64,000 bases of DNA from Candidatus Sungiibacteriota bacterium (lineage in GTDB: Bacteria; Patescibacteriota; Minisyncoccia; Sungbacterales; SURF-37): positions 8,053-72,052 of the forward strand of contig JACPMF010000010.1 of the NCBI GenBank assembly GCA_016186145.1, written 5' to 3'. Below the pieces are notes generated by a model, which saw nothing but the letters and a program-made list of their open reading frames with translations, made no database searches and was not told the origin of the DNA. Shown here in pieces: positions 2,666-48,321 of this stretch. Made by a program: the position numbers and the translations under genes. The stretch's first letter is position 1; the number at the start of each line of letters is the position of its first letter.

Positions 2666-3643
2666 CTACGGCATAGTAAACAACCTTTTTGCCTCATCCC
2701 ACATTTCCGGTTTTTCATGCTCCTTTTTAAGCCAATACCACCATTCAACCCCCCAAAAATAGACTTCATGAAAACCGGTTGCGCGCGCGTATTCAACATT
2801 CCTTTTTAATTTTTCCGGATTCATAAGCGAGAGCTGCTCATTAAGATTTTTTTCTGACGGAAACTCCGCCATCCACGGTTCGGCTTGCAACTCAACGATA
2901 ATAATTGGTTTTTTACCGTATATCATTTCCACAAGCCGGGCTTTCATTCTAAAATAACCGGGCCTCAACGGATAGGTAAAATTTCCGAGAAACTCATTCC
3001 AGACGGTCCGATAGAGCGTCGTACCAAAGATGTCCGAACGCGAATACGCCGGAGCCCAAATCGAAAGTTCGCCGGAATCAGTTACCACAATCGGCCGATC
3101 ATCCAAAGCGCGAAACCGGCTTATTTCGACGTCAATAAAACGAGCATCATAGTCTTTGCACTCTCCGAAAGGCAAGAAAGGTTCATTTTCAATCTGCCAA
3201 TACCGGAGAACCTGACGCTCGCGATAACGGTTTAATATCTCTCCCAAAAAACTGAGCAGATAAGCATGGCGCTCCTGGCGCGACTTTTCTGAAACCCAGG
3301 AAGGAATATGGCATTCGGGCCAGCGCGGAAGCTTCTCGCCCACGGCAAGAATCACGTCAACCCCGCGCCGTTCGGCTTCCTGAAGCATAAAATCGAGATC
3401 AGAGAAATCGAACTCGCTCTCCTTTGGCTCATACTCGTCCCAATAAACGGGAATCCTGAGGTGCTTTACACCCAAATCGTCAAGAATGGCAATATAAGTC
3501 TCTTTCCAATCAAGGTTCAGCGTATCGCGAGCATACGGCGCCGAAAACGTAACTCCATAGAGAACAGAATCCGGGACCGGAACCGGACGGCTCAAAAACC
3601 AAATGGCAATCAATATGAGGCCGATGAGAGATAGATATTTCAT
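2666..3643 (-). CDS. Secreted TIM-barrel glycoside hydrolase (GH5/GH42-like)
   Basis: Signal peptide MKYLSLIGLILIAIWFLS. Has RYWQIENEP, an N-E-P catalytic acid/base-like motif typical of clan GH-A. Many W/Y residues. Confidence 0.5.
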   Translation of the reverse strand: MKYLSLIGLILIAIWFLSRPVPVPDSVLYGVTFSAPYARDTLNLDWKETYIAILDDLGVKHLRIPVYWDEYEPKESEFDFSDLDFMLQEAERRGVDVILAVGEKLPRWPECHIPSWVSEKSRQERHAYLLSFLGEILNRYRERQVLRYWQIENEPFLPFGECKDYDARFIDVEISRFRALDDRPIVVTDSGELSIWAPAYSRSDIFGTTLYRTVWNEFLGNFTYPLRPGYFRMKARLVEMIYGKKPIIIVELQAEPWMAEFPSEKNLNEQLSLMNPEKLKRNVEYARATGFHEVYFWGVEWWYWLKKEHEKPEMWDEAKRLFTMP

Positions 3644-3708
3644 GCGAATTTTGTCGAAATTTTGGAGCGAATTTGTTTTGTGAATAAAATTTCGCTACAA
3701 AATTCAGC

Positions 3709-3852
3709 ACCCTGTTAAATAATTTCGCCTTTGGCGAAATTAACTTTAAATTTTCTGCATATATCATTTTTTATTATATGCGTATCTTGAAATCACTGAA
3801 GTACAAAAAATTTTATACTGGTTATGCAGAAAATTTAAAGTTATTTAACAGG
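3709..3852. repeat. Long imperfect inverted repeat in the region upstream of the GH gene
   Basis: ccctgttaaataa...actttaaattttctgcata (3709-3761) pairs with tatgcagaaaatttaaagttatttaacaggg (3823-3852). The 5' arm carries an internal palindrome tttcgcctttggcgaaa. A third aaattttctgc copy lies at about 3866. Confidence 0.5.
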
Positions 3853-3911
3853 GTAAAAGTTTGGCAGCTAAATTTTCTGCGCCTACGGCTTGAAAATTTA
3901 GGCCAAGCCCT

Positions 3912-4838
3912 TTATTGAAATGCCAATAGCGCAAGCGCCACGGCTATAAGTAAAATTGCGAATGCTTTTTCAAATATAATAAGCGGCGTAACTTCCTCCT
4001 CCAAAAATTTGGGGCGGAGCCGTGAAATCAAAAGCGCAAAAATGAAGATAAGAACATACTCAATACCCTGCAAGGCGTTAACCAAGGAAACGCTCGGCGC
4101 GATTGAAATCGCAAAACTTACAAGAAAAAAGCCAAGAGCGCCTAAAATCTTGTTAATAAAAAACGCGCCGATGGTCGTACGATCCGCCATGCGCGGAGCC
4201 TCAAAAATTGATTCGCGGCTGGCGCTAAAAAACAAGAACGGGAGCACACCGACAAAACCGCCGATACGAGTCCAGATAAAACCGTTTATAAAATCGGTCT
4301 CGTTAAAAACGGCTTTTTCATATACGTAGGTAACCCCAAAAAGAAACGAAGCGAGCACGAGCCAGCCGACGTTTTTGAGATCGCTGATGTTAAACCTTCC
4401 ATCTTTTTTGTGAGTTAATGAAATCAAAATGCTCCCGGCGACAAGAATGAGAAATGCGACGAACTCCCACCGTGATAGCGTTTCGCCCAAAATTCCACGA
4501 GAAAGGAAAAAAACGAAAATCGGTGAAAGGCCGCCAATCACCGGCGCGACACGGGACGCCTCACCGCGCTGAATCGCGATGTAGAAGAAAAAAAGCGCGA
4601 ACGTGAACGCAACGCCGGAAATAAAGGCATCGGTTATAACATTTGTCTCGGGAACAAAAAAACTTATCGGCGCCAAGAAAAAAGCTCCCAGCCCTAATAC
4701 TCCAACCCAAAAAACATACGTTGATGGCCTCTGAATTCTTTGCGCAAGAAGAAATTTATCGAGGATAACCGCAAACGCATGGAACGAATACGCGATTATA
4801 GTCACCGGCAGCCAACCGATAAGGTAAAGAAAGGTCAT
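3912..4838 (-). CDS. EamA/DMT-superfamily transporter (10-TM)
   Basis: About 10 hydrophobic helices in two 5-TM halves, typical of EamA-like permeases. Confidence 0.5.
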   Translation of the reverse strand: MTFLYLIGWLPVTIIAYSFHAFAVILDKFLLAQRIQRPSTYVFWVGVLGLGAFFLAPISFFVPETNVITDAFISGVAFTFALFFFYIAIQRGEASRVAPVIGGLSPIFVFFLSRGILGETLSRWEFVAFLILVAGSILISLTHKKDGRFNISDLKNVGWLVLASFLFGVTYVYEKAVFNETDFINGFIWTRIGGFVGVLPFLFFSASRESIFEAPRMADRTTIGAFFINKILGALGFFLVSFAISIAPSVSLVNALQGIEYVLIFIFALLISRLRPKFLEEEVTPLIIFEKAFAILLIAVALALLAFQ

Positions 4839-7576: not shown

Positions 7577-8767
7577 ATGAAACAGGAAAGAGAACTCAAT
7601 GCGACAACCATTCTTCAGCACGGCGGATACAGTCCTACGAAACATGGCGGTCATCTCAATCCCCCGCTGTATCTTGATATCGCTCCGGTACAACCGGATA
7701 TCGAAACAGCAGCAAAGAAATTTGCCGAGGCCGAGCTTGGCTTTACGTATATGCGTAAGGGCCACGAAAATGCTCGCATCCTTGAAAAACGCCTGGCACT
7801 GCTTGATGGCGCAGAAGACGCCCTTGTATTTGCGTCCGGAATGGCCGCGACCAATTGCCTGCTTCTTGACCTTGTAAAGCCGGGCAAAAAACTTATTACA
7901 CAACTTTCTATGTACGGGGGCACTGTTGGATTTCTTACGAAAGATTTTAGAGACGCTGGACGCGAGGTTGAATTCGTCGTTGATCCCGGAAGAACCGGCG
8001 ATTGGGAAGCGCTTGCCGATAACAACACCGCCGCCATTTGGGTTGAAATGCCATCAAATCCAAAAATCGGATTGGTTAATCTGGAGGCGATTGCGGAAAT
8101 TGCAAAATTTCGGGATATTCCATTAATTGTTGACAGTACTTTCACGCCGCTCCTGTTACGCCCGCTCAAATGGGGCGCAACAATCGTAATGCGCTCAGGA
8201 TCAAAATATGAAAATCCCGGCGGTACATCGCTTTTAGGATATGTAATGGGTCCGCGGCATTTCATAAATCCGATCCGAAACGGACGTTATGAACGCTACG
8301 GTGCTACCGCAAGCCCAATGGATTGCTGGCTTGCAGAGCTGGGGCTGCGAACGCTTTACCTACGCATGCATAGGCAATCTGAATCAGCGCTTTTTGTTGC
8401 CGGTTGGCTCAAGACCCAATCTAAAGTTAAAGAAATTTATTACCCCGGTCTAAAAACATCACCATATTTCCGACTAGCAAGAAAATATTTACCGGATGGC
8501 TGCGGCGCAGTTCTTGCTTTTGAACTGAAAGGCAGCAAGGGGGCTTGCAACCGATTTATGAAGTCGCTTAAAATCTTCAAGCACGTTATCAATCTTGGGG
8601 ATACTCGCTCTCTTGCAACATATCCTGCCGGGACTACGCATTCAAAACTTTCTCCGGACGAACTTATGAAAACCGGAATTACACCCTCGCTAATTCGCCT
8701 CTCTGTCGGACTTGAGGATCCGGTGGATCTCGTTTGGGACTTGAAGCAGGCCCTGAGTAAATGCTGA
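7577..8767 (+). CDS. PLP-dependent Cys/Met-metabolism enzyme (cystathionine gamma-synthase / beta-lyase / O-acetylhomoserine sulfhydrylase family)
   Basis: Has ALVFASGMAA and MRSGSKYENPGG (the PLP-lysine SxSK motif), at the length typical of the trans-sulfuration family. Confidence 0.75.
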   Translation: MKQERELNATTILQHGGYSPTKHGGHLNPPLYLDIAPVQPDIETAAKKFAEAELGFTYMRKGHENARILEKRLALLDGAEDALVFASGMAATNCLLLDLVKPGKKLITQLSMYGGTVGFLTKDFRDAGREVEFVVDPGRTGDWEALADNNTAAIWVEMPSNPKIGLVNLEAIAEIAKFRDIPLIVDSTFTPLLLRPLKWGATIVMRSGSKYENPGGTSLLGYVMGPRHFINPIRNGRYERYGATASPMDCWLAELGLRTLYLRMHRQSESALFVAGWLKTQSKVKEIYYPGLKTSPYFRLARKYLPDGCGAVLAFELKGSKGACNRFMKSLKIFKHVINLGDTRSLATYPAGTTHSKLSPDELMKTGITPSLIRLSVGLEDPVDLVWDLKQALSKC

Positions 8768-8778
8768 AAATAAAATAA

Positions 8779-8805
8779 AAGCCGTCGCAGTGACGGCTTT
8801 TTAAA
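8779..8805 (+). terminator. Rho-independent terminator aagccgtcgcagtgacggcttttt
   Basis: 9-bp stem plus T-run, 12 nt after the stop codon. Confidence 0.7.
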
Positions 8806-8868
8806 ATGTACAACCGCACCGGAAGCGCTTGCGGTATCACCGTACCGCTTGGCGGTACTCGCGGTTGT

Positions 8869-9050
8869 TCACCCAGCACATAAATTTACATCCGCCGTAT
8901 ATCCTAAAGCGTAAGGTATACAAGATAATTCTGAAATACAGAGATGGCCACTTATAAATTTATGTGCTGGGTTATTGTTTCGTAGCCGCAATCCACCCCA
9001 CACATAACTTATAAGTTATGTATGGGGTATTCTTGCGGACGAAACAATAA
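8869..9050. repeat. Structured intergenic repeat element, copy A
   Basis: Hairpin 1 has an 18-bp perfect stem acccagcacataaattta / taaatttatgtgctgggt around a ~64-nt loop. An outer stem ttattgtttcgtagccgca / tgcggacgaaacaataa then encloses the palindrome ccccacacataactta-taagttatgtatgggg. The same layout recurs at 11065..11240. Confidence 0.5.
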
Positions 9051-9099
9051 AGTTTTCCACAATTTGGATTGTTTGCTGCCGGAAAACCATTATACTTAA

Positions 9100-9124
9100 T
9101 TGACAAGTAACAACTATATATTAT
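9100..9124 (+). promoter_or_regulatory. Putative sigma70-type promoter (TTGACA, then an AT-rich -10 region tatatattat)
   Basis: Consensus -35 hexamer about 115 nt upstream of the riboswitch core. The -10 spacing is ambiguous (13-16 nt). Confidence 0.3.
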
Positions 9125-9214
9125 CAAGAGCGCGGTTCGCCCCGTTAGATAACTTAAGACCGAAAATATTTCCGAATACGCATGTCTAACTCATGACGAG
9201 CCACGTTGGGTAAA

Positions 9215-9352
9215 TAATTTTTATCTAACGGGGTGAGGGCCCTGGCCCGTTGACCCGCCAGCAGCTTGTCTACGGTTAACCGTGATAAAGTGCTAAATCC
9301 AGCCTTGGTGCGCCGAAGCTTTATGCGAAGGCGACCCCTGGGAAAGATAACT
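9215..9352 (+). promoter_or_regulatory. SAM-I (S-box) riboswitch in the metK leader
   Basis: ttatc...GGTGAGGGCCCTGGCCCGTTGACCCGCCAGCAGC...GGTGCTAAATCCAGCC...GGGAAAGATAACTCATCG matches the S-box consensus CUUAUC..GAGGGAcUGGCCCgaUGA.aCCCgGCAACC...GGUGCuAAUUCCuGC...GAAAGAUGAG. The P1 strands are ttatc/gataa. It sits directly 5' of metK. Confidence 0.7.
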
Positions 9353-9357
9353 CATCG

Positions 9358-9383
9358 CGTCTTTCCCCGGGAAAGGCGTTTTT
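9358..9383 (+). terminator. Riboswitch expression-platform terminator cgtctttcc-ccgg-ggaaaggcg plus T5
   Basis: 9-bp stem (one G-U pair) followed by TTTTT, ending 7 nt before the metK ATG. Confidence 0.6.
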
Positions 9384-9389
9384 AATTAA

Positions 9390-10442
9390 ATGCTATACAA
9401 TCCACATACTTATACGGTGGAAAGCGTCACTTCGGGACACCCCGACAAAATCTGCGACCAAATTTCAGACGCAATTTTGGACGAATGCCTCCGCCGGGAC
9501 CCAAAAAGCCGCGTTGCAGTAGAATGCTTCGGCGGCCACGGCGCTCTTGTTATCGGAGGCGAAGTGACGACATCGGCGCGTGTTGATTACGCCGACATCG
9601 CAAGAGAAATCTACGAGAACATCGGCCACACGAAAAACCTTAAAATAATCACGAACGTCGTTACTCAATCTCCGGATATTGCCCAAGGAGTTAACACCGG
9701 CGGCGCCGGAGACCAAGGTATTATGTACGGCTTTGCAACAGACGAGACGCCGGAATTTATGCCGTTTGCCGTCGTAAAGGCACATGCATTGGCCCAAGGA
9801 TTAGAGGCTCTCCGGAGAAACAATTCTCTGTTTTCATGGCTCAGCCCTGATGGAAAAACGCAGGTTACCATTAAAAACAGCAAGGTTAAAACAATACTTA
9901 TTTCCTGCCAACACGATGAAAACATCGAACAGGAGGAAATAAAACGGCTTTTGAAAGAACACCTTGTGGAACCGGTTATTGGAGATATTTCCAGCATTGA
10001 GATATTGGTAAATCCAACTGGTAAATTTACTGTCGGAGGATTTGACGCCGATACCGGACTTACCGGCAGAAAAATTATGGTGGATACATACGGCGGCCTC
10101 ATTCCCCATGGCGGCGGATGTTTTTCCGGAAAAGACCCGACGAAAGTCGACCGCTCGGCGGCGTACATGGCCCGCTTTGCGGCAAAAAATATTGTTGCAT
10201 CAGGAATAGCTAAAAAGTGCCTCGTATCAGTTGCATATGCCATCGGGCGGGCCGAACCGCTTATGGTAGAAATGATCAATGAAAAAGGAGAAAGCATTGC
10301 CGGAGCAATAAAAAACAACTTCGATTTCCGGCCCACGGCAATTATCGAACGCCTCAACCTCCAAGAACCAATTTACCTCTCTACTGCCGCATATGGCCAT
10401 TTTGGGAAAGAGGGCTTGCCTTGGGAAAAAGTTCTATATTGA
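9390..10442 (+). CDS. metK: S-adenosylmethionine synthetase
   Basis: ESVTSGHPDKICDQISDAILD and GGAGDQGIMYGFA, with the C-terminal AAYGHFGKEGLPWEK. It is a compact 350-aa form. Confidence 0.9.
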   Translation: MLYNPHTYTVESVTSGHPDKICDQISDAILDECLRRDPKSRVAVECFGGHGALVIGGEVTTSARVDYADIAREIYENIGHTKNLKIITNVVTQSPDIAQGVNTGGAGDQGIMYGFATDETPEFMPFAVVKAHALAQGLEALRRNNSLFSWLSPDGKTQVTIKNSKVKTILISCQHDENIEQEEIKRLLKEHLVEPVIGDISSIEILVNPTGKFTVGGFDADTGLTGRKIMVDTYGGLIPHGGGCFSGKDPTKVDRSAAYMARFAAKNIVASGIAKKCLVSVAYAIGRAEPLMVEMINEKGESIAGAIKNNFDFRPTAIIERLNLQEPIYLSTAAYGHFGKEGLPWEKVLY

Positions 10443-10516
10443 CAACTGTTGGAAAGCAGCGATACCATAATCCAGTATGCTCTTTTGTATTTTAATGCGG
10501 ACAGAAGGAGGAAACG

Positions 10517-10969
10517 GTGAACGCGGATATCTATACGACAGAACTCGATCTGGAAGAGACCAAAAAAGCTGAAACCTTTGAAGAACTACTCGCGGTTGCA
10601 TTGAGAATAATCAACCGACTCAGCTATCCTATCGGAATGGTCTGCGGGCCGATTACCAGCGGCGGAACCGGCTCCCAGGAAGAAAATGTAGCAAAGCTTG
10701 CTCGAGCAATACGGGCCCTTCGCGAAGAACAGGGAGAAATTATTTTCAACCAGCTTGTGTTTGAAGCGGCAATGATGCGCATTAAAGAAACCCCCTACTA
10801 CCGCGACGCGCTCCATCTCCTCGAAGCTTTTTATCGGCCGCTCTTTGAACACGGAAAAATCAAAACCTTCTACTTTGTGACAGGATGGAAAAGTTCTTTT
10901 GGGACAAACTGGGAGCACGAGGAAGCCGTACGGCTCGGAATAAAAATCGTTTATCTGCCAGAGATATAA
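10517..10969 (+). CDS. Hypothetical protein (GTG start, RBS AAGGAGGA), co-transcribed with metK
   Basis: A 150-aa ORF with a strong RBS. Contains GMVCGPITSGGTGS (a glycine-rich loop, possibly a Rossmann-like fold). Family unknown. Confidence 0.5.
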   Translation: MNADIYTTELDLEETKKAETFEELLAVALRIINRLSYPIGMVCGPITSGGTGSQEENVAKLARAIRALREEQGEIIFNQLVFEAAMMRIKETPYYRDALHLLEAFYRPLFEHGKIKTFYFVTGWKSSFGTNWEHEEAVRLGIKIVYLPEI

Positions 10970-10987
10970 TCAGCAGCCGACAAAAAT

Positions 10988-11011
10988 AGCACCCCCAACA
11001 GGGGCTTTTTT
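10988..11011 (+). terminator. Weak terminator agcaccccc-aaca-ggggc plus T6
   Basis: Short GC stem followed by TTTTTT. Confidence 0.4.
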
Positions 11012-11064
11012 AGTATAAATGATTGTGGAGCTCCGCGTCAGAAAGCTAATACAATATCTCCACT

Positions 11065-11240
11065 TCACCCAGCACATAAATTTACATACGGTTATAAAGC
11101 GATGAGATGGTTTAGCTGCCAAACTTTGTTTTTAGGCAAAACATCGACTGTAAATTTATGTGCTGGGTTATTGTTTGTAGCTCCATTCATCCGAGCGCTC
11201 AACGCATTGAGCGCTCGGTATTCTGGAGACAAACAATAAC
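11065..11240. repeat. Structured intergenic repeat element, copy B
   Basis: 21-bp stem cacccagcacataaatttaca / tgtaaatttatgtgctgggt around a ~61-nt loop. An outer stem ttattgtttgtagctcca / tggagacaaacaataa encloses the palindrome ccgagcgctcaacgcattgagcgctcgg. Compared with copy A, the inner hairpin differs in sequence but stays palindromic. Confidence 0.5.
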
Positions 11241-25271: not shown

Positions 25272-26135
25272 TTACTTTTTTGTACTCCGCCTATCGTACA
25301 TCAGTAACGAGGCGCCTACAACGCCAGCTCGTTCACCGAATTTTGAACGTATAATCTTGGGAAAAGACGGCCCGGGCAAAATGCTCATACGCCTCATGGC
25401 GGATAACACTTTTCTATTGAATTGCGAATCCCAAAGCGACAAAAAACCGCCGCCGATCACAATGTATTCCGGCGCCAAAGCATAAGTGATGTTGACGAAT
25501 CCCAATGCAATAGTTTTCGCAAATTCATTAACATCTTTCGGGGTCTTTTTGCTTCTTAAAAACCTTTTTGTGCTCACCCGCTCCCATTCGCTATATTCTT
25601 GAATTTTTCCGCCCGAGGCGGATCCGCTTTTGGCGGAGGATTTTGAATTTTGGATTTTTATAATGGTGTGTCCAAACTCCCCTGCCCAACCAAGCCCGCC
25701 TTTATAAATTTTGCCGTCAGCTATAATTGCTCCGCCGATCCCCGTTCCTAAAGCTACGAAAACAAAATTTTTTGATTTTCTGCCGGCACCGTATTTTAAT
25801 TCCGCCATGGCAGCCGCCTTCGCGTCATTCTCCATAAAAACCCGCACACGATACTGCTTGGCGATAGCCCGAGAAAGCTCGAGCGGATTAAGCCCCCGAA
25901 TATTCGGACAAAAAGACGGCCTCCCAGCTGCCGTAAAAATACACGGCACCCCAATGCCGATACTAGAAATGCGCGCGTTGCCGCACACGGAATCCAGCGC
26001 GCGCAAAACGGTTTGTTTGATTGCGTGACCGCCCCGCGCTTTAAATTCTGTTTTTCGAAAACGAAGGATTCGTCCGTTCCTTACCAGAGCGGCGGCAATT
26101 TTTGAGGCGCCGATGTCAATGCCGATAGTGTACAT
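25272..26135 (-). CDS. ROK-family sugar kinase (glucokinase-like)
   Basis: IGIDIGASKIAAALV N-terminal ATP motif, ENDAKAAAMAE and ALGTGIGGAII. Confidence 0.7.
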   Translation of the reverse strand: MYTIGIDIGASKIAAALVRNGRILRFRKTEFKARGGHAIKQTVLRALDSVCGNARISSIGIGVPCIFTAAGRPSFCPNIRGLNPLELSRAIAKQYRVRVFMENDAKAAAMAELKYGAGRKSKNFVFVALGTGIGGAIIADGKIYKGGLGWAGEFGHTIIKIQNSKSSAKSGSASGGKIQEYSEWERVSTKRFLRSKKTPKDVNEFAKTIALGFVNITYALAPEYIVIGGGFLSLWDSQFNRKVLSAMRRMSILPGPSFPKIIRSKFGERAGVVGASLLMYDRRSTKK

Positions 26136-45826: not shown

Positions 45827-45920
45827 TTATTGTAGAAGCAGATTTATACAGATGACAACGCGGACCGATGCGGATCCGCGTGAATCCGCGTAGCTATCCT
45901 TATTTATCCGCTTCTATTTT

Positions 45921-47696: not shown

Positions 47697-47730
47697 ATGC
47701 GGGGTGCATCACGCACCCCGCATTTTCTTT
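47697..47730 (+). terminator. Rho-independent terminator gcggggtgc-atcac-gcaccccgc plus a T-run
   Basis: 9-bp GC stem followed by ttttcttttt. Confidence 0.7.
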
Positions 47731-47737
47731 TTCCATA

Positions 47738-47771
47738 AATACTTCAATACAGCGCTGTATTGAAGTATTTA
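47738..47771. promoter_or_regulatory. 34-bp perfect palindrome AAATACTTCAATACAGCGCTGTATTGAAGTATTT (candidate operator), copy 1
   Basis: It is exactly self-complementary. It lies downstream of the yerC-like gene and shares the core AATACAGCGCTGTATT with 48216..48244. Confidence 0.45.
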
Positions 47772-47792
47772 AAAAAACAAAATCACCACAAT

Positions 47793-48209
47793 CTACTCAT
47801 GATGAAGAAATCTCCACCGCCCCTTACCCGCGATTGGCGGCAAAGCGAAAAGTCGTATAATACGATCAAGTTTTGCAAACAGCATTTCAAGTTTTCTGTC
47901 CTTTTCAAGGAGTACAACCGCTTTCTCAAATCCACCGCCGCCGCGATCCATCCTATCCTTCATTACGCTTATCGTGGCCTCGCTCACCTTCAAAGTCCTG
48001 CTTATTATGCCAAACGGATATCCTTTGTAGAGCATTACAACGATGGCAAGTCTCTTTGCAATCATAATTCGCTCTGTTTTTGTCAACAAATCGCTCAATA
48101 TATCGTTTAGATCTCCCTGGTGTGTAGTACCTGCCAAAAGCTCAATAAACCGATCGTGTAGAGACCGAAGCGTCTCCTTATCTAATTTATTTCTTGATAC
48201 GTGTGGCAT
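47793..48209 (-). CDS. TrpR/YerC-family DNA-binding protein
   Basis: ...TKTERIMIAKRLAIVVMLYKGYPFGIISRTLKVSEATISVM matches the Trp-repressor/YerC HTH block (A.RL..A..L..G.....I...TG.S.ATISRV). The likely start is the internal Met (MPHVS...) at 48209. Confidence 0.6.
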   Translation of the reverse strand: MPHVSRNKLDKETLRSLHDRFIELLAGTTHQGDLNDILSDLLTKTERIMIAKRLAIVVMLYKGYPFGIISRTLKVSEATISVMKDRMDRGGGGFEKAVVLLEKDRKLEMLFAKLDRIIRLFALPPIAGKGRWRFLHHE

Positions 48210-48215
48210 ACACGA

Positions 48216-48244
48216 ATACTTTAATACAGCGCTGTATTGAAGTA
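48216..48244. promoter_or_regulatory. Near-perfect palindrome TACTTTAATACAGCGCTGTATTGAAGTA, copy 2, 7 nt upstream of the yerC-like start
   Basis: One mismatch from a perfect palindrome. It sits where an autoregulatory operator would be expected. Confidence 0.45.
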
Positions 48245-48321
48245 AAGGAAAATAAAAAAACACCATTAGAAAACTTGGTGTTTATTATCTATGTTTATCA
48301 GCTCTTTCGTGCAGCTTTCTT

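Follow-up and report, generated by a model that had tools for sequence, protein, structure and literature searches.

The 64-kb window analysed here, a stretch of a Candidatus Sungbacteria metagenome-assembled genome (MAG), carries two intergenic elements, E1 and E2, on either side of metK and the open reading frame (ORF) downstream of it, ORF150. E1 is followed by the S-adenosylmethionine (SAM) riboswitch and metK, E2 by tgt, and each is preceded by a terminator-like hairpin with a T-run (8777-8804 for E1; 10991-11012, weak on the plus strand, for E2). Common to the two is the 18-mer ACCCAGCACATAAATTTA, which together with its complement occurs exactly four times in the window, as two inverted pairs, with none expected from shuffles. 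Each element consists of three neighbouring hairpins, A' at the 5' side, B in the centre and the long C' at the 3' side. Coordinates are positions within the window; L numbers denote loci elsewhere and P numbers homologues of the nuclease described below.

8871-8888/8955-8972 and 11067-11084/11151-11168: the two inverted pairs of the 18-mer, from an exact-match search of the window.
8806..8870, plus strand: module A' of E1 with a TC linker; outer stem ACAACCGC (8810-8817) / GCGGTTGT (8861-8868); DNA fold z -4.1.
8871..8972, plus strand: module B of E1; 18-bp perfect inverted repeat around a 66-nt non-conserved filler; DNA fold z -6.8.
8973..9050, plus strand: module C' of E1; outer stem 8973-8983/9039-9049; DNA fold z -9.9.
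8986-8991 (CCGCAA) and 9033-9038 (TTGCGG), plus strand: middle stem of C' in E1.
8995-9028, plus strand: inner palindrome of C' in E1, B-like and apparently nested.
11020..11066, plus strand: module A' of E2, then TTC; stem GTGGAG (11025-11030) / CTCCAC (11058-11063).
11067..11168, plus strand: module B of E2; 20-bp perfect inverted repeat (11067-11086/11149-11168) around a 62-nt filler; DNA fold z -8.2.
11169..11239, plus strand: module C' of E2; outer stem 11169-11178/11229-11238; DNA fold z -10.9.
11181-11185 (CTCCA) and 11224-11228 (TGGAG), plus strand: middle stem of C' in E2.
11191-11218, plus strand: inner palindrome of C' in E2.

The B stems are perfect in both elements (18 bp in E1, 20 bp in E2), and the fillers that they enclose, of 66 and 62 nt, do not align to each other. 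When E1 and E2 are aligned, the fully identical blocks are the arms, TTATTGTTT, GTAGC, GGTATTCT and AAACAATAA, with dissimilar stretches in between. The outer stems of C' read TATTGTTTCGT/ACGAAACAATA in E1 vs TATTGTTTGT/ACAAACAATA in E2, and the internal loop of C' is conserved (TTCAT / TATTC). The A' stem of E1 recurs in the relative L046 as GAACAACCGC/GCGGTTGTTC, and GAACATGGAG/CTCCATTTC occupies the A' position in other genomes. In E2, A' (11025-11063) has decayed to a 6-bp stem with a non-significant DNA fold (z -0.6), homologous to ..TGAACATGGAGCTCCGCGCAGC..TATCTCCATTTC in L004, L007 and L036. An earlier note on this DNA, made from the letters alone, had described perfect stems around non-aligning loops of about 60 nt, an outer stem with inner palindromes, and a terminator ahead of each copy, all of which are present. 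Its two hairpins per copy are real but are joined by A' as a third, and its two copies by a third, divergent element, E3, and a related hairpin at 9135-9236, both in the window. A small peptide encoded in the fillers was rejected, as E1 and E2 share no ORF on inspection by eye; CRISPR-like spacers and a tRNA-like structure were likewise dropped, with no direct repeats and no ARAGORN or Rfam matches found.

Folded as RNA and compared with shuffles, the whole elements reach z-scores of -11.0 (E1) and -9.1 (E2) on the plus strand and of -11.4 and -10.0 on the minus strand, and modules B and C' folded as DNA range from -6.8 to -10.9. Across 13 distinct arm pairs of B, 96.7% of cells are paired and both sides have changed at 5 of 14 pairs; the covariation score of 0.307, vs 0.091 in shuffles, was reached by none of 500 shuffles. 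Mismatches of the G.T and A.C kinds, counted on the sense strand of B, are about equally frequent. The formal pair counting covers B only; C' and the outer stems were judged by folding each copy, and MAFFT misplaces compensated outer-stem indels in whole elements of the window's type. The middle stem of C', missed by the earlier reader, covaries between E1 and E2 (CCGCAA/TTGCGG vs CTCCA/TGGAG), and the middle and outer stems do so across six genomes. Copy by copy, these comparisons show that compensatory changes preserve the pairing of B and of the stems next to it. The claim that the two copies are no simple duplication, pairing being kept as the letters change, is thereby borne out for B and C'.

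Related copies extend well beyond the window, across the Candidate Phyla Radiation (CPR, or Patescibacteria). In a scan with one genome per species, the exact 18-mer was found as paired inverted arms in MAGs labelled Colwell-, Lipton-, Azam- and Portnoybacteria, Paceibacterota and Saccharibacteria, and near-exact partner arms were found in further Parcubacteria and unclassified MAGs. The possibility raised in the earlier note, that only these two copies exist, thus falls away, with the stem being kept in many other genomes. Single-arm matches with no partner (Pantoea, Erwinia, Buttiauxella, Akkermansia and others) are noise, about 17 being expected by chance in 596 Gb by our estimate, and viral contigs scanned for the 18-mer gave no match. 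Metagenomes scanned for the junction pattern of the window's elements yielded two real new copies only, L036 and L039 (the latter identical to L007), the three other matches being chance; L036 and L039, like L043, come from Hainich groundwater. Hairpins of the form ACC..GGT and with a stem of 14 bp or more numbered 47 in CPR loci (217 kb), as against 1 in non-CPR loci (100 kb) and none in shuffles.

The defining part of the family is the B palindrome, ACCCAGCACATAAATTT plus AAATTTATGTGCTGGGT, which occurs in three states: as an unfilled, perfect palindrome of 28 nt (in L013, and nearly perfect in L014 and L031), with an unconserved filler of 65-71 nt, as in the window copies, or with the gene of a 75-aa stand-alone GIY-YIG nuclease between the arms. 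B is usually flanked by two more hairpins, and the distal parts are variable and may hold nested B-like palindromes. Two types of flank can be told apart. The window type (L004, L007/L039, L027, L036, L046) has the layout GAACATGGAGCTC..CTCCATTTC / B / T(T)ATT(T)GTTTG..CAAAC(A)AATAA, and its copies fold alike, with outer-stem indels compensated and with differing middle and inner stems. The Paceibacteria type, TAAGGGCTT..AAACCTT / B / GCTCAATT..AATTGGC-ATG, spans exactly from stop codon to start codon. One Colwellbacteria MAG holds one gene-bearing and at least seven gene-less copies, three loci having been examined. In one subfamily of gene-less Colwellbacteria copies, a possible ORF of 41-47 codons (MSKENQI..FMCWVL..) was seen by eye (L003 4304-4470 and 5483-5645; L020 6344-6510); it extends from the filler across the right B arm and on into module C, and shows conservative differences among copies.

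At L019 and L028, the 224 nt between the B arms encode the 75-aa protein, with an in-frame stop in the L028 copy, and both proteins match the Pfam GIY-YIG family (E 1.5e-11 and 3.9e-12, respectively). Homologues form 592 clusters in a large protein database, nearly all of 74-76 aa, those named being from Patescibacteria, and Y5, Y16, G18, R26, H30 and E41, the GIY and YIG tyrosines among them, are invariant in 32 members. The protein is conserved, has its catalytic residues intact and is apparently active. The gene is bracketed by B arms in 7 of 7 contexts (L019, L028, P0024, P0073, P0094, P0065 and P0104); in the five P contexts the ATG lies at or just past the left arm and the stop codon inside the right arm. 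Between loci, the arms vary in a compensated manner (ACCGAGC/GCTCGGT, ATAACTTT/AAAGTTAT, ATAAGTT/AACTTAT, ATAATCTT/AAGATTAT, ATAATTCA/TGAATTAT). A profile search of the PDB returned the UPF0213 protein BH0048 first (1zg2, E 3.7e-5), followed by I-TevI and Slx1. The statement that no transposase or other enzyme accompanies the elements holds within the window, but not for the complete relatives, which carry the GIY-YIG gene between their B arms. The fillers as remnants of a deleted nuclease gene are unsupported: aligned against six genes, they gave z-scores mostly within +/-1.5, and the few of 2.8-4.1 were inconsistent in orientation. At L042, a second GIY-YIG gene encoding 94 aa (3633-3917, minus strand), the length of SsnA, lies divergently beside a 75-aa gene (4001-4228).

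Comparison of filled and empty sites was possible through L046, a syntenic relative whose metK, ORF150 and tgt are about 80% identical to those of the window at the nucleotide level. At the ORF150/tgt junction, L046 carries an orthologous element within conserved flanking intergenic DNA, its B compensated (ACCGAGC..), its A' of the E1 kind and its outer stem as in E2, with a middle stem (CCGCCA/TGGCGG) and an inner stem that differ from those of E2. Upstream of metK, where L046 is rearranged and two intervening window genes are gone, there is a bare C' core (1340-1396), its middle stem as in E1, without inner palindrome, B or A'. After the Pro_dh terminator, L046 has an extra element in reverse orientation, and the orthologous window site (about 14745) is empty. 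The SAM riboswitch of L046, finally, is free of a 100-nt hairpin that is present in the window, listed here with its relatives.

9135..9236, plus strand: 'B2', a stand-alone hairpin, TTC-GCCCCGTTAGATAAC.., with a 16-bp stem and a 68-nt loop; z -4.7.
Window 9139-9234; L015 3953-4047; L017 3536-3675; L022 2588-2689, 5532-5565 and 7642-7723; L040 5083-5203: sites of the 'B2' family.

This hairpin is inserted in the P2 region of the metK SAM-I riboswitch (9117-9353), which scores 39.2 vs the Rfam threshold of 44.4 bits; upstream of the insert is the true 5' part of the riboswitch (ATTATCAAGAGCGCGG, at about 9117-9134). The motif CCCGTTAGA of the hairpin's stem is found again, in the form of paired arms, at other CPR loci, and the 'B2' palindromes found across lineages have arms of the form (A/T/G)CCC(C)GTTAGA.. 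with a loop length of about 54-112 nt.

Ribosomal-protein operons provide further filled and empty sites: five junctions are occupied in L003, and those occupied in L015 differ from them. Gaps measure -19 to +34 nt where empty and 180-225 nt where filled, the latter wholly made up of the element; the rplN/rplX junction reads TAA-C-ATG in L015 and TAA-GGGCTT..TTGGC-ATG in L003. At L027 (3389-3651), B-like arms (TCCCAGCACATATTTTTG / CAAAAATATGTGCTGGGT) around 227 nt stand in place of a helix of the 16S rRNA 5' domain (model positions about 178-200), an insert of the length of the nuclease cassette without an intact ORF. Nesting is seen as well. The inner palindrome of C' in E1 is a diverged B palindrome (ACCCCACACATAACTTA vs ACCCAGCACATAAATTT) and is optional, being missing in two C' copies of L046, so that it looks like a separate palindromic unit that was inserted within C'; at L013, an unfilled B lies within the loop of another module. 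To judge from their sequences, the L013 copy and the E1 inner palindrome are nested insertions, and the inner palindromes, which the earlier note had called covarying, are better read as nested units, their compensatory evolution being unsupported. Filled and empty orthologous sites, nesting, and insertion into a riboswitch and a 16S helix together show mobile DNA, and the comparisons show the elements to be insertions that come and go at orthologous sites.

The placement of E1 and E2 bears on two alternatives. As two identical palindrome halves of 18-20 bp flank metK-ORF150, the elements could be protein-binding operators or looping sites that regulate the bracketed unit. However, neighbours in other CPR genomes are unrelated (ribosomal proteins, serS, ligA, tRNA genes) and adjoin the same arms, L046 keeps metK and its riboswitch without an upstream B, and metK already possesses a SAM riboswitch of its own; we consider regulation of this kind very improbable, and the bracketing of metK, which the earlier note had put forward, incidental. 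Alternatively, E1 and E2 could be recombination sites, attC-like or invertible, of an integron-like or a tyrosine- or serine-recombinase system, with metK-ORF150 as the cassette or the 66-nt filler as an invertible switch. Conservation of structure rather than sequence is reminiscent of attC, and inverted repeats do surround a short segment upstream of genes. Yet no integrase or other recombinase was found among the neighbouring ORFs scanned, inspection by eye revealed no R''/R' cores (RYYYAAC..GTTRRRY) and no GTTRRRY core at the element ends, the flanked genes are conserved housekeeping genes that are syntenic in L046, and the gene in complete copies is a nuclease, which makes site-specific recombination hardly credible.

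A more serious alternative is a functional RNA. The elements would then be intercistronic or untranslated-region modules: RNase III would cut in the long B duplex, hairpins A and C would shield the 3' and 5' ends so created or keep the stop codon close to the start codon for re-initiation, and the nuclease gene would be a passenger. RNase III acts on Correia elements and on rRNA intervening sequences, the predicted folds are very stable, and the B-flanked insertion in the 16S helix requires removal or tolerance at the RNA level. Moreover, 19 of 19 Paceibacteria-type copies are co-oriented with the flanking genes and fill stop-to-start gaps within operons, including ribosomal-protein operons. 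The window-type copies, in contrast, lie downstream of terminator hairpins, and homologues at L036 and in the extra L046 copy (7600-7759) are reversed relative to the genes. The two strands fold equally well, the similar numbers of G.T and A.C mismatches in B give no strand signal, and presence or absence varies among close relatives. Rfam 15 contains no family that matches an element at the gathering threshold; permissive searches returned chance-level miRNA-type matches only, with E up to 10 for the window elements and up to 1 for L019 and E3. The positions behind terminators, the two orientations, the folding of both strands and the Rfam result argue against the structured leader RNA that the earlier note had listed as a candidate, as do the balanced mismatches, and an RNA function as the basis of the family appears unlikely to us.

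Based on these observations, we propose that E1 and E2 are gene-less members of a modular, nuclease-associated family of palindromic DNA repeats that is spread across the CPR, a reading to which we assign a probability of roughly 0.6. The family is best read as analogous to the Ssn/NTS and RAYT/REP systems, yet distinct from them in sequence and architecture, and the general class suggested before, one like the repetitive extragenic palindromes (REPs) or the miniature transposable elements with inverted repeats (MITEs), was right. What appears unusual, as far as the compared sequences tell, is the gene within a hairpin, the modular build of three hairpins and the near-identical core across several CPR lineages. 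In the literature searched, we found no account of this family, nor any report that CPR carry MITE- or REP-like elements; a 2026 preprint of possible relevance lies outside this scope.

The mechanism that we envisage starts with the nuclease, which would recognise the B hairpin, extruded as single-stranded DNA (ssDNA) or as a cruciform, and would cut at or near B. Through such cuts, both the cassette and gene-less copies would be copied or recombined, and the latter, those of the window included, would depend on nuclease supplied in trans. Recognition of B is suggested by the analogies to Ssn/NTS-SRM and RAYT/REP and by UPF0213 and Slx1 as the nearest solved relatives, Slx1 being a structure-specific nuclease. 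Because every module self-folds, copies may be tolerated behind terminators, between tightly spaced genes, and within the stem of a riboswitch or a helix of 16S rRNA; any effects that the window copies have at the RNA level (cleavage by RNase III or protection of ends, for example) are probably by-products. We read the pattern of the Paceibacteria type as the outcome of selection, either for insertions that do no harm within operons or for expression of the nuclease gene by read-through.

Of the known kinds of repeat, MITEs such as the Neisseria Correia elements resemble B in its size of about 100 bp with perfect terminal inverted repeats of 18-20 bp, in being intergenic and potentially co-transcribed with genes, and in forming a long hairpin. 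The putative parent, however, carries a nuclease and not a DDE transposase, and while a gene-bearing form with the same arms exists, the similarity of the fillers to it is inconsistent. REP sequences and the bacterial interspersed mosaic elements (BIMEs) that they compose are linked to RAYTs, the REP-associated tyrosine transposases (PMC2817692, PMC3733652), and share with the CPR family extragenic palindromes in mosaic modular units, a repeat-flanked enzyme gene and copies just downstream of genes. They differ in that the CPR enzyme is a GIY-YIG nuclease and RAYT an HUH/Y1 transposase, in that B starts with ACCC and lacks the GTAG/CGTC head of REP palindromes (20-40 bp), and in the longer stems (18-32 bp), AT-rich centre and 65-71 nt filler of the CPR repeats. 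The closest likeness in the enzyme is to Ssn, single-domain GIY-YIG enzymes that cut ssDNA beside hairpin repeats flanking their own genes (PMC11893778, Chenal et al. 2025). In both, a very small single-domain GIY-YIG gene is bracketed by a hairpin-forming repeat (in 7 of 7 CPR contexts, none of them within the window), the gene-less repeat is also dispersed in intergenic DNA of the same genome, and repeat and enzyme appear to co-vary between lineages. Unlike Ssn, whose gene lies between two separate hairpins, the CPR gene lies inside one hairpin, between its arms; the CPR protein has 75 aa vs 94 aa, and the CPR family is known from sequence alone. Finally, GIY-YIG ORFs in CPR rRNA genes have been reported to sit in non-intron insertions and were treated as sporadic, with no mention of inverted repeats or palindromes (Tsurumaki et al. 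2024, PMC11270868). Clade, small GIY-YIG ORF type and insertion at a helix tip, as in bacterial rRNA intervening sequences (cf. L027), are shared; the window copies differ in being intergenic, with a relative within 16S at L027 3389-3651. The rRNA-insertion ORFs of Tsurumaki et al. are probably the same cassette.

Several points weigh against our proposal. That the nuclease binds or cuts B is drawn purely from analogy, and the tie to Ssn is one of likeness alone, the nearest solved relatives of the nuclease being UPF0213- and Slx1-like. The SRM consensus HGTCWYN(0-2)YYVSBRHN(0-5)WNVSBRGN(0-2)RNCYNB matches nowhere in the window or L003, nor in the surroundings of five CPR GIY-YIG genes. By tblastn, a GIY-YIG gene is absent from the 64-kb window. 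Since no consistent likeness links the fillers to the nuclease gene, derivation of the short form from the long one by deletion is unsupported, and since those of E1 and E2 are unrelated, neither is a recent copy of the other. No clear target-site duplication was seen at one filled/empty boundary and one riboswitch insertion, with no complete junction readable. Furthermore, the co-orientation and stop-to-start fit of the Paceibacteria-type copies point to an additional constraint at the level of RNA or translation, which the model does not explain.

A bolder version goes one step further, in that the B arms and the 75-aa gene (about 260-280 bp) may by themselves form a complete autonomous mobile element, homing-like and targeting DNA secondary structure; we regard this as doubtful. 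The structure-specific nuclease would cut extruded hairpins or palindrome centres, into which the cassette would be copied. If true, this would be the smallest autonomous element known in bacteria, and it would explain the insertion at the dyad of the 28-nt palindrome, the nesting in hairpin loops and the entry into an rRNA helix and a riboswitch stem.

The remaining member of the family in the window is E3, which is of the Paceibacteria type.

About 3650-3917, minus strand: E3, third divergent element; z -9.8; flanks match L021, L022 and L028.

On the minus strand it reads TAAAGGGCTTGGCC..hairpin..GCCAAACTTTT, a B-like 32-bp stem ACCCTGTTAAATAAC.. and GCTGAATTTTGT..hairpin. The arms of the B-like stem lie within 3709-3854 around a 61-nt loop, with a small hairpin nested in one arm, and the element fills the intergenic space, with the stop of ORF 3912-4838 on one side and the start of ORF 2666-3643 on the other.

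A few further observations were made along the way. ORF150 (10517-10969), whose product is identical to a protein from a Candidatus Sungbacteria MAG, is a conserved hypothetical protein gene with a weak, sub-threshold DUF4406 match and about 15 homologue clusters, located beside metK and tgt in L046, and not so in L048 or L049. Palindromes sharing CTTCAATACAGC/GCTGTATTGAAG (47725-47782 and 48217-48244) lie on either side of ORF 47793-48266 (minus strand) and may be paired operators. A long imperfect palindrome at 45833-45916 is centred on GCGGATCCGC, and the same decamer palindrome is found at 25608-25637. Among Logan contigs that carry metK or ORF150, the short L034 and L047 start or end within or beside B arms, which suggests that the hairpins break short-read assemblies.

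In practical terms, hairpins of this kind may contribute to contig breaks, depress riboswitch scores and be mistaken for regulatory RNAs. The family may represent a second, sequence-unrelated set of minimal nuclease and hairpin pairs, the Ssn kind having drawn interest as ssDNA tools (PMC11893778), and would offer a concrete, testable role for the small GIY-YIG ORFs of CPR rRNA insertions, which earlier work had left unplaced (PMC11270868). Genomes of the CPR, of about 1 Mb, are usually called streamlined and poor in mobile DNA, yet this family fills five junctions of one ribosomal-protein operon, and an identical core of 18-28 nt is kept in MAGs of several CPR lineages.

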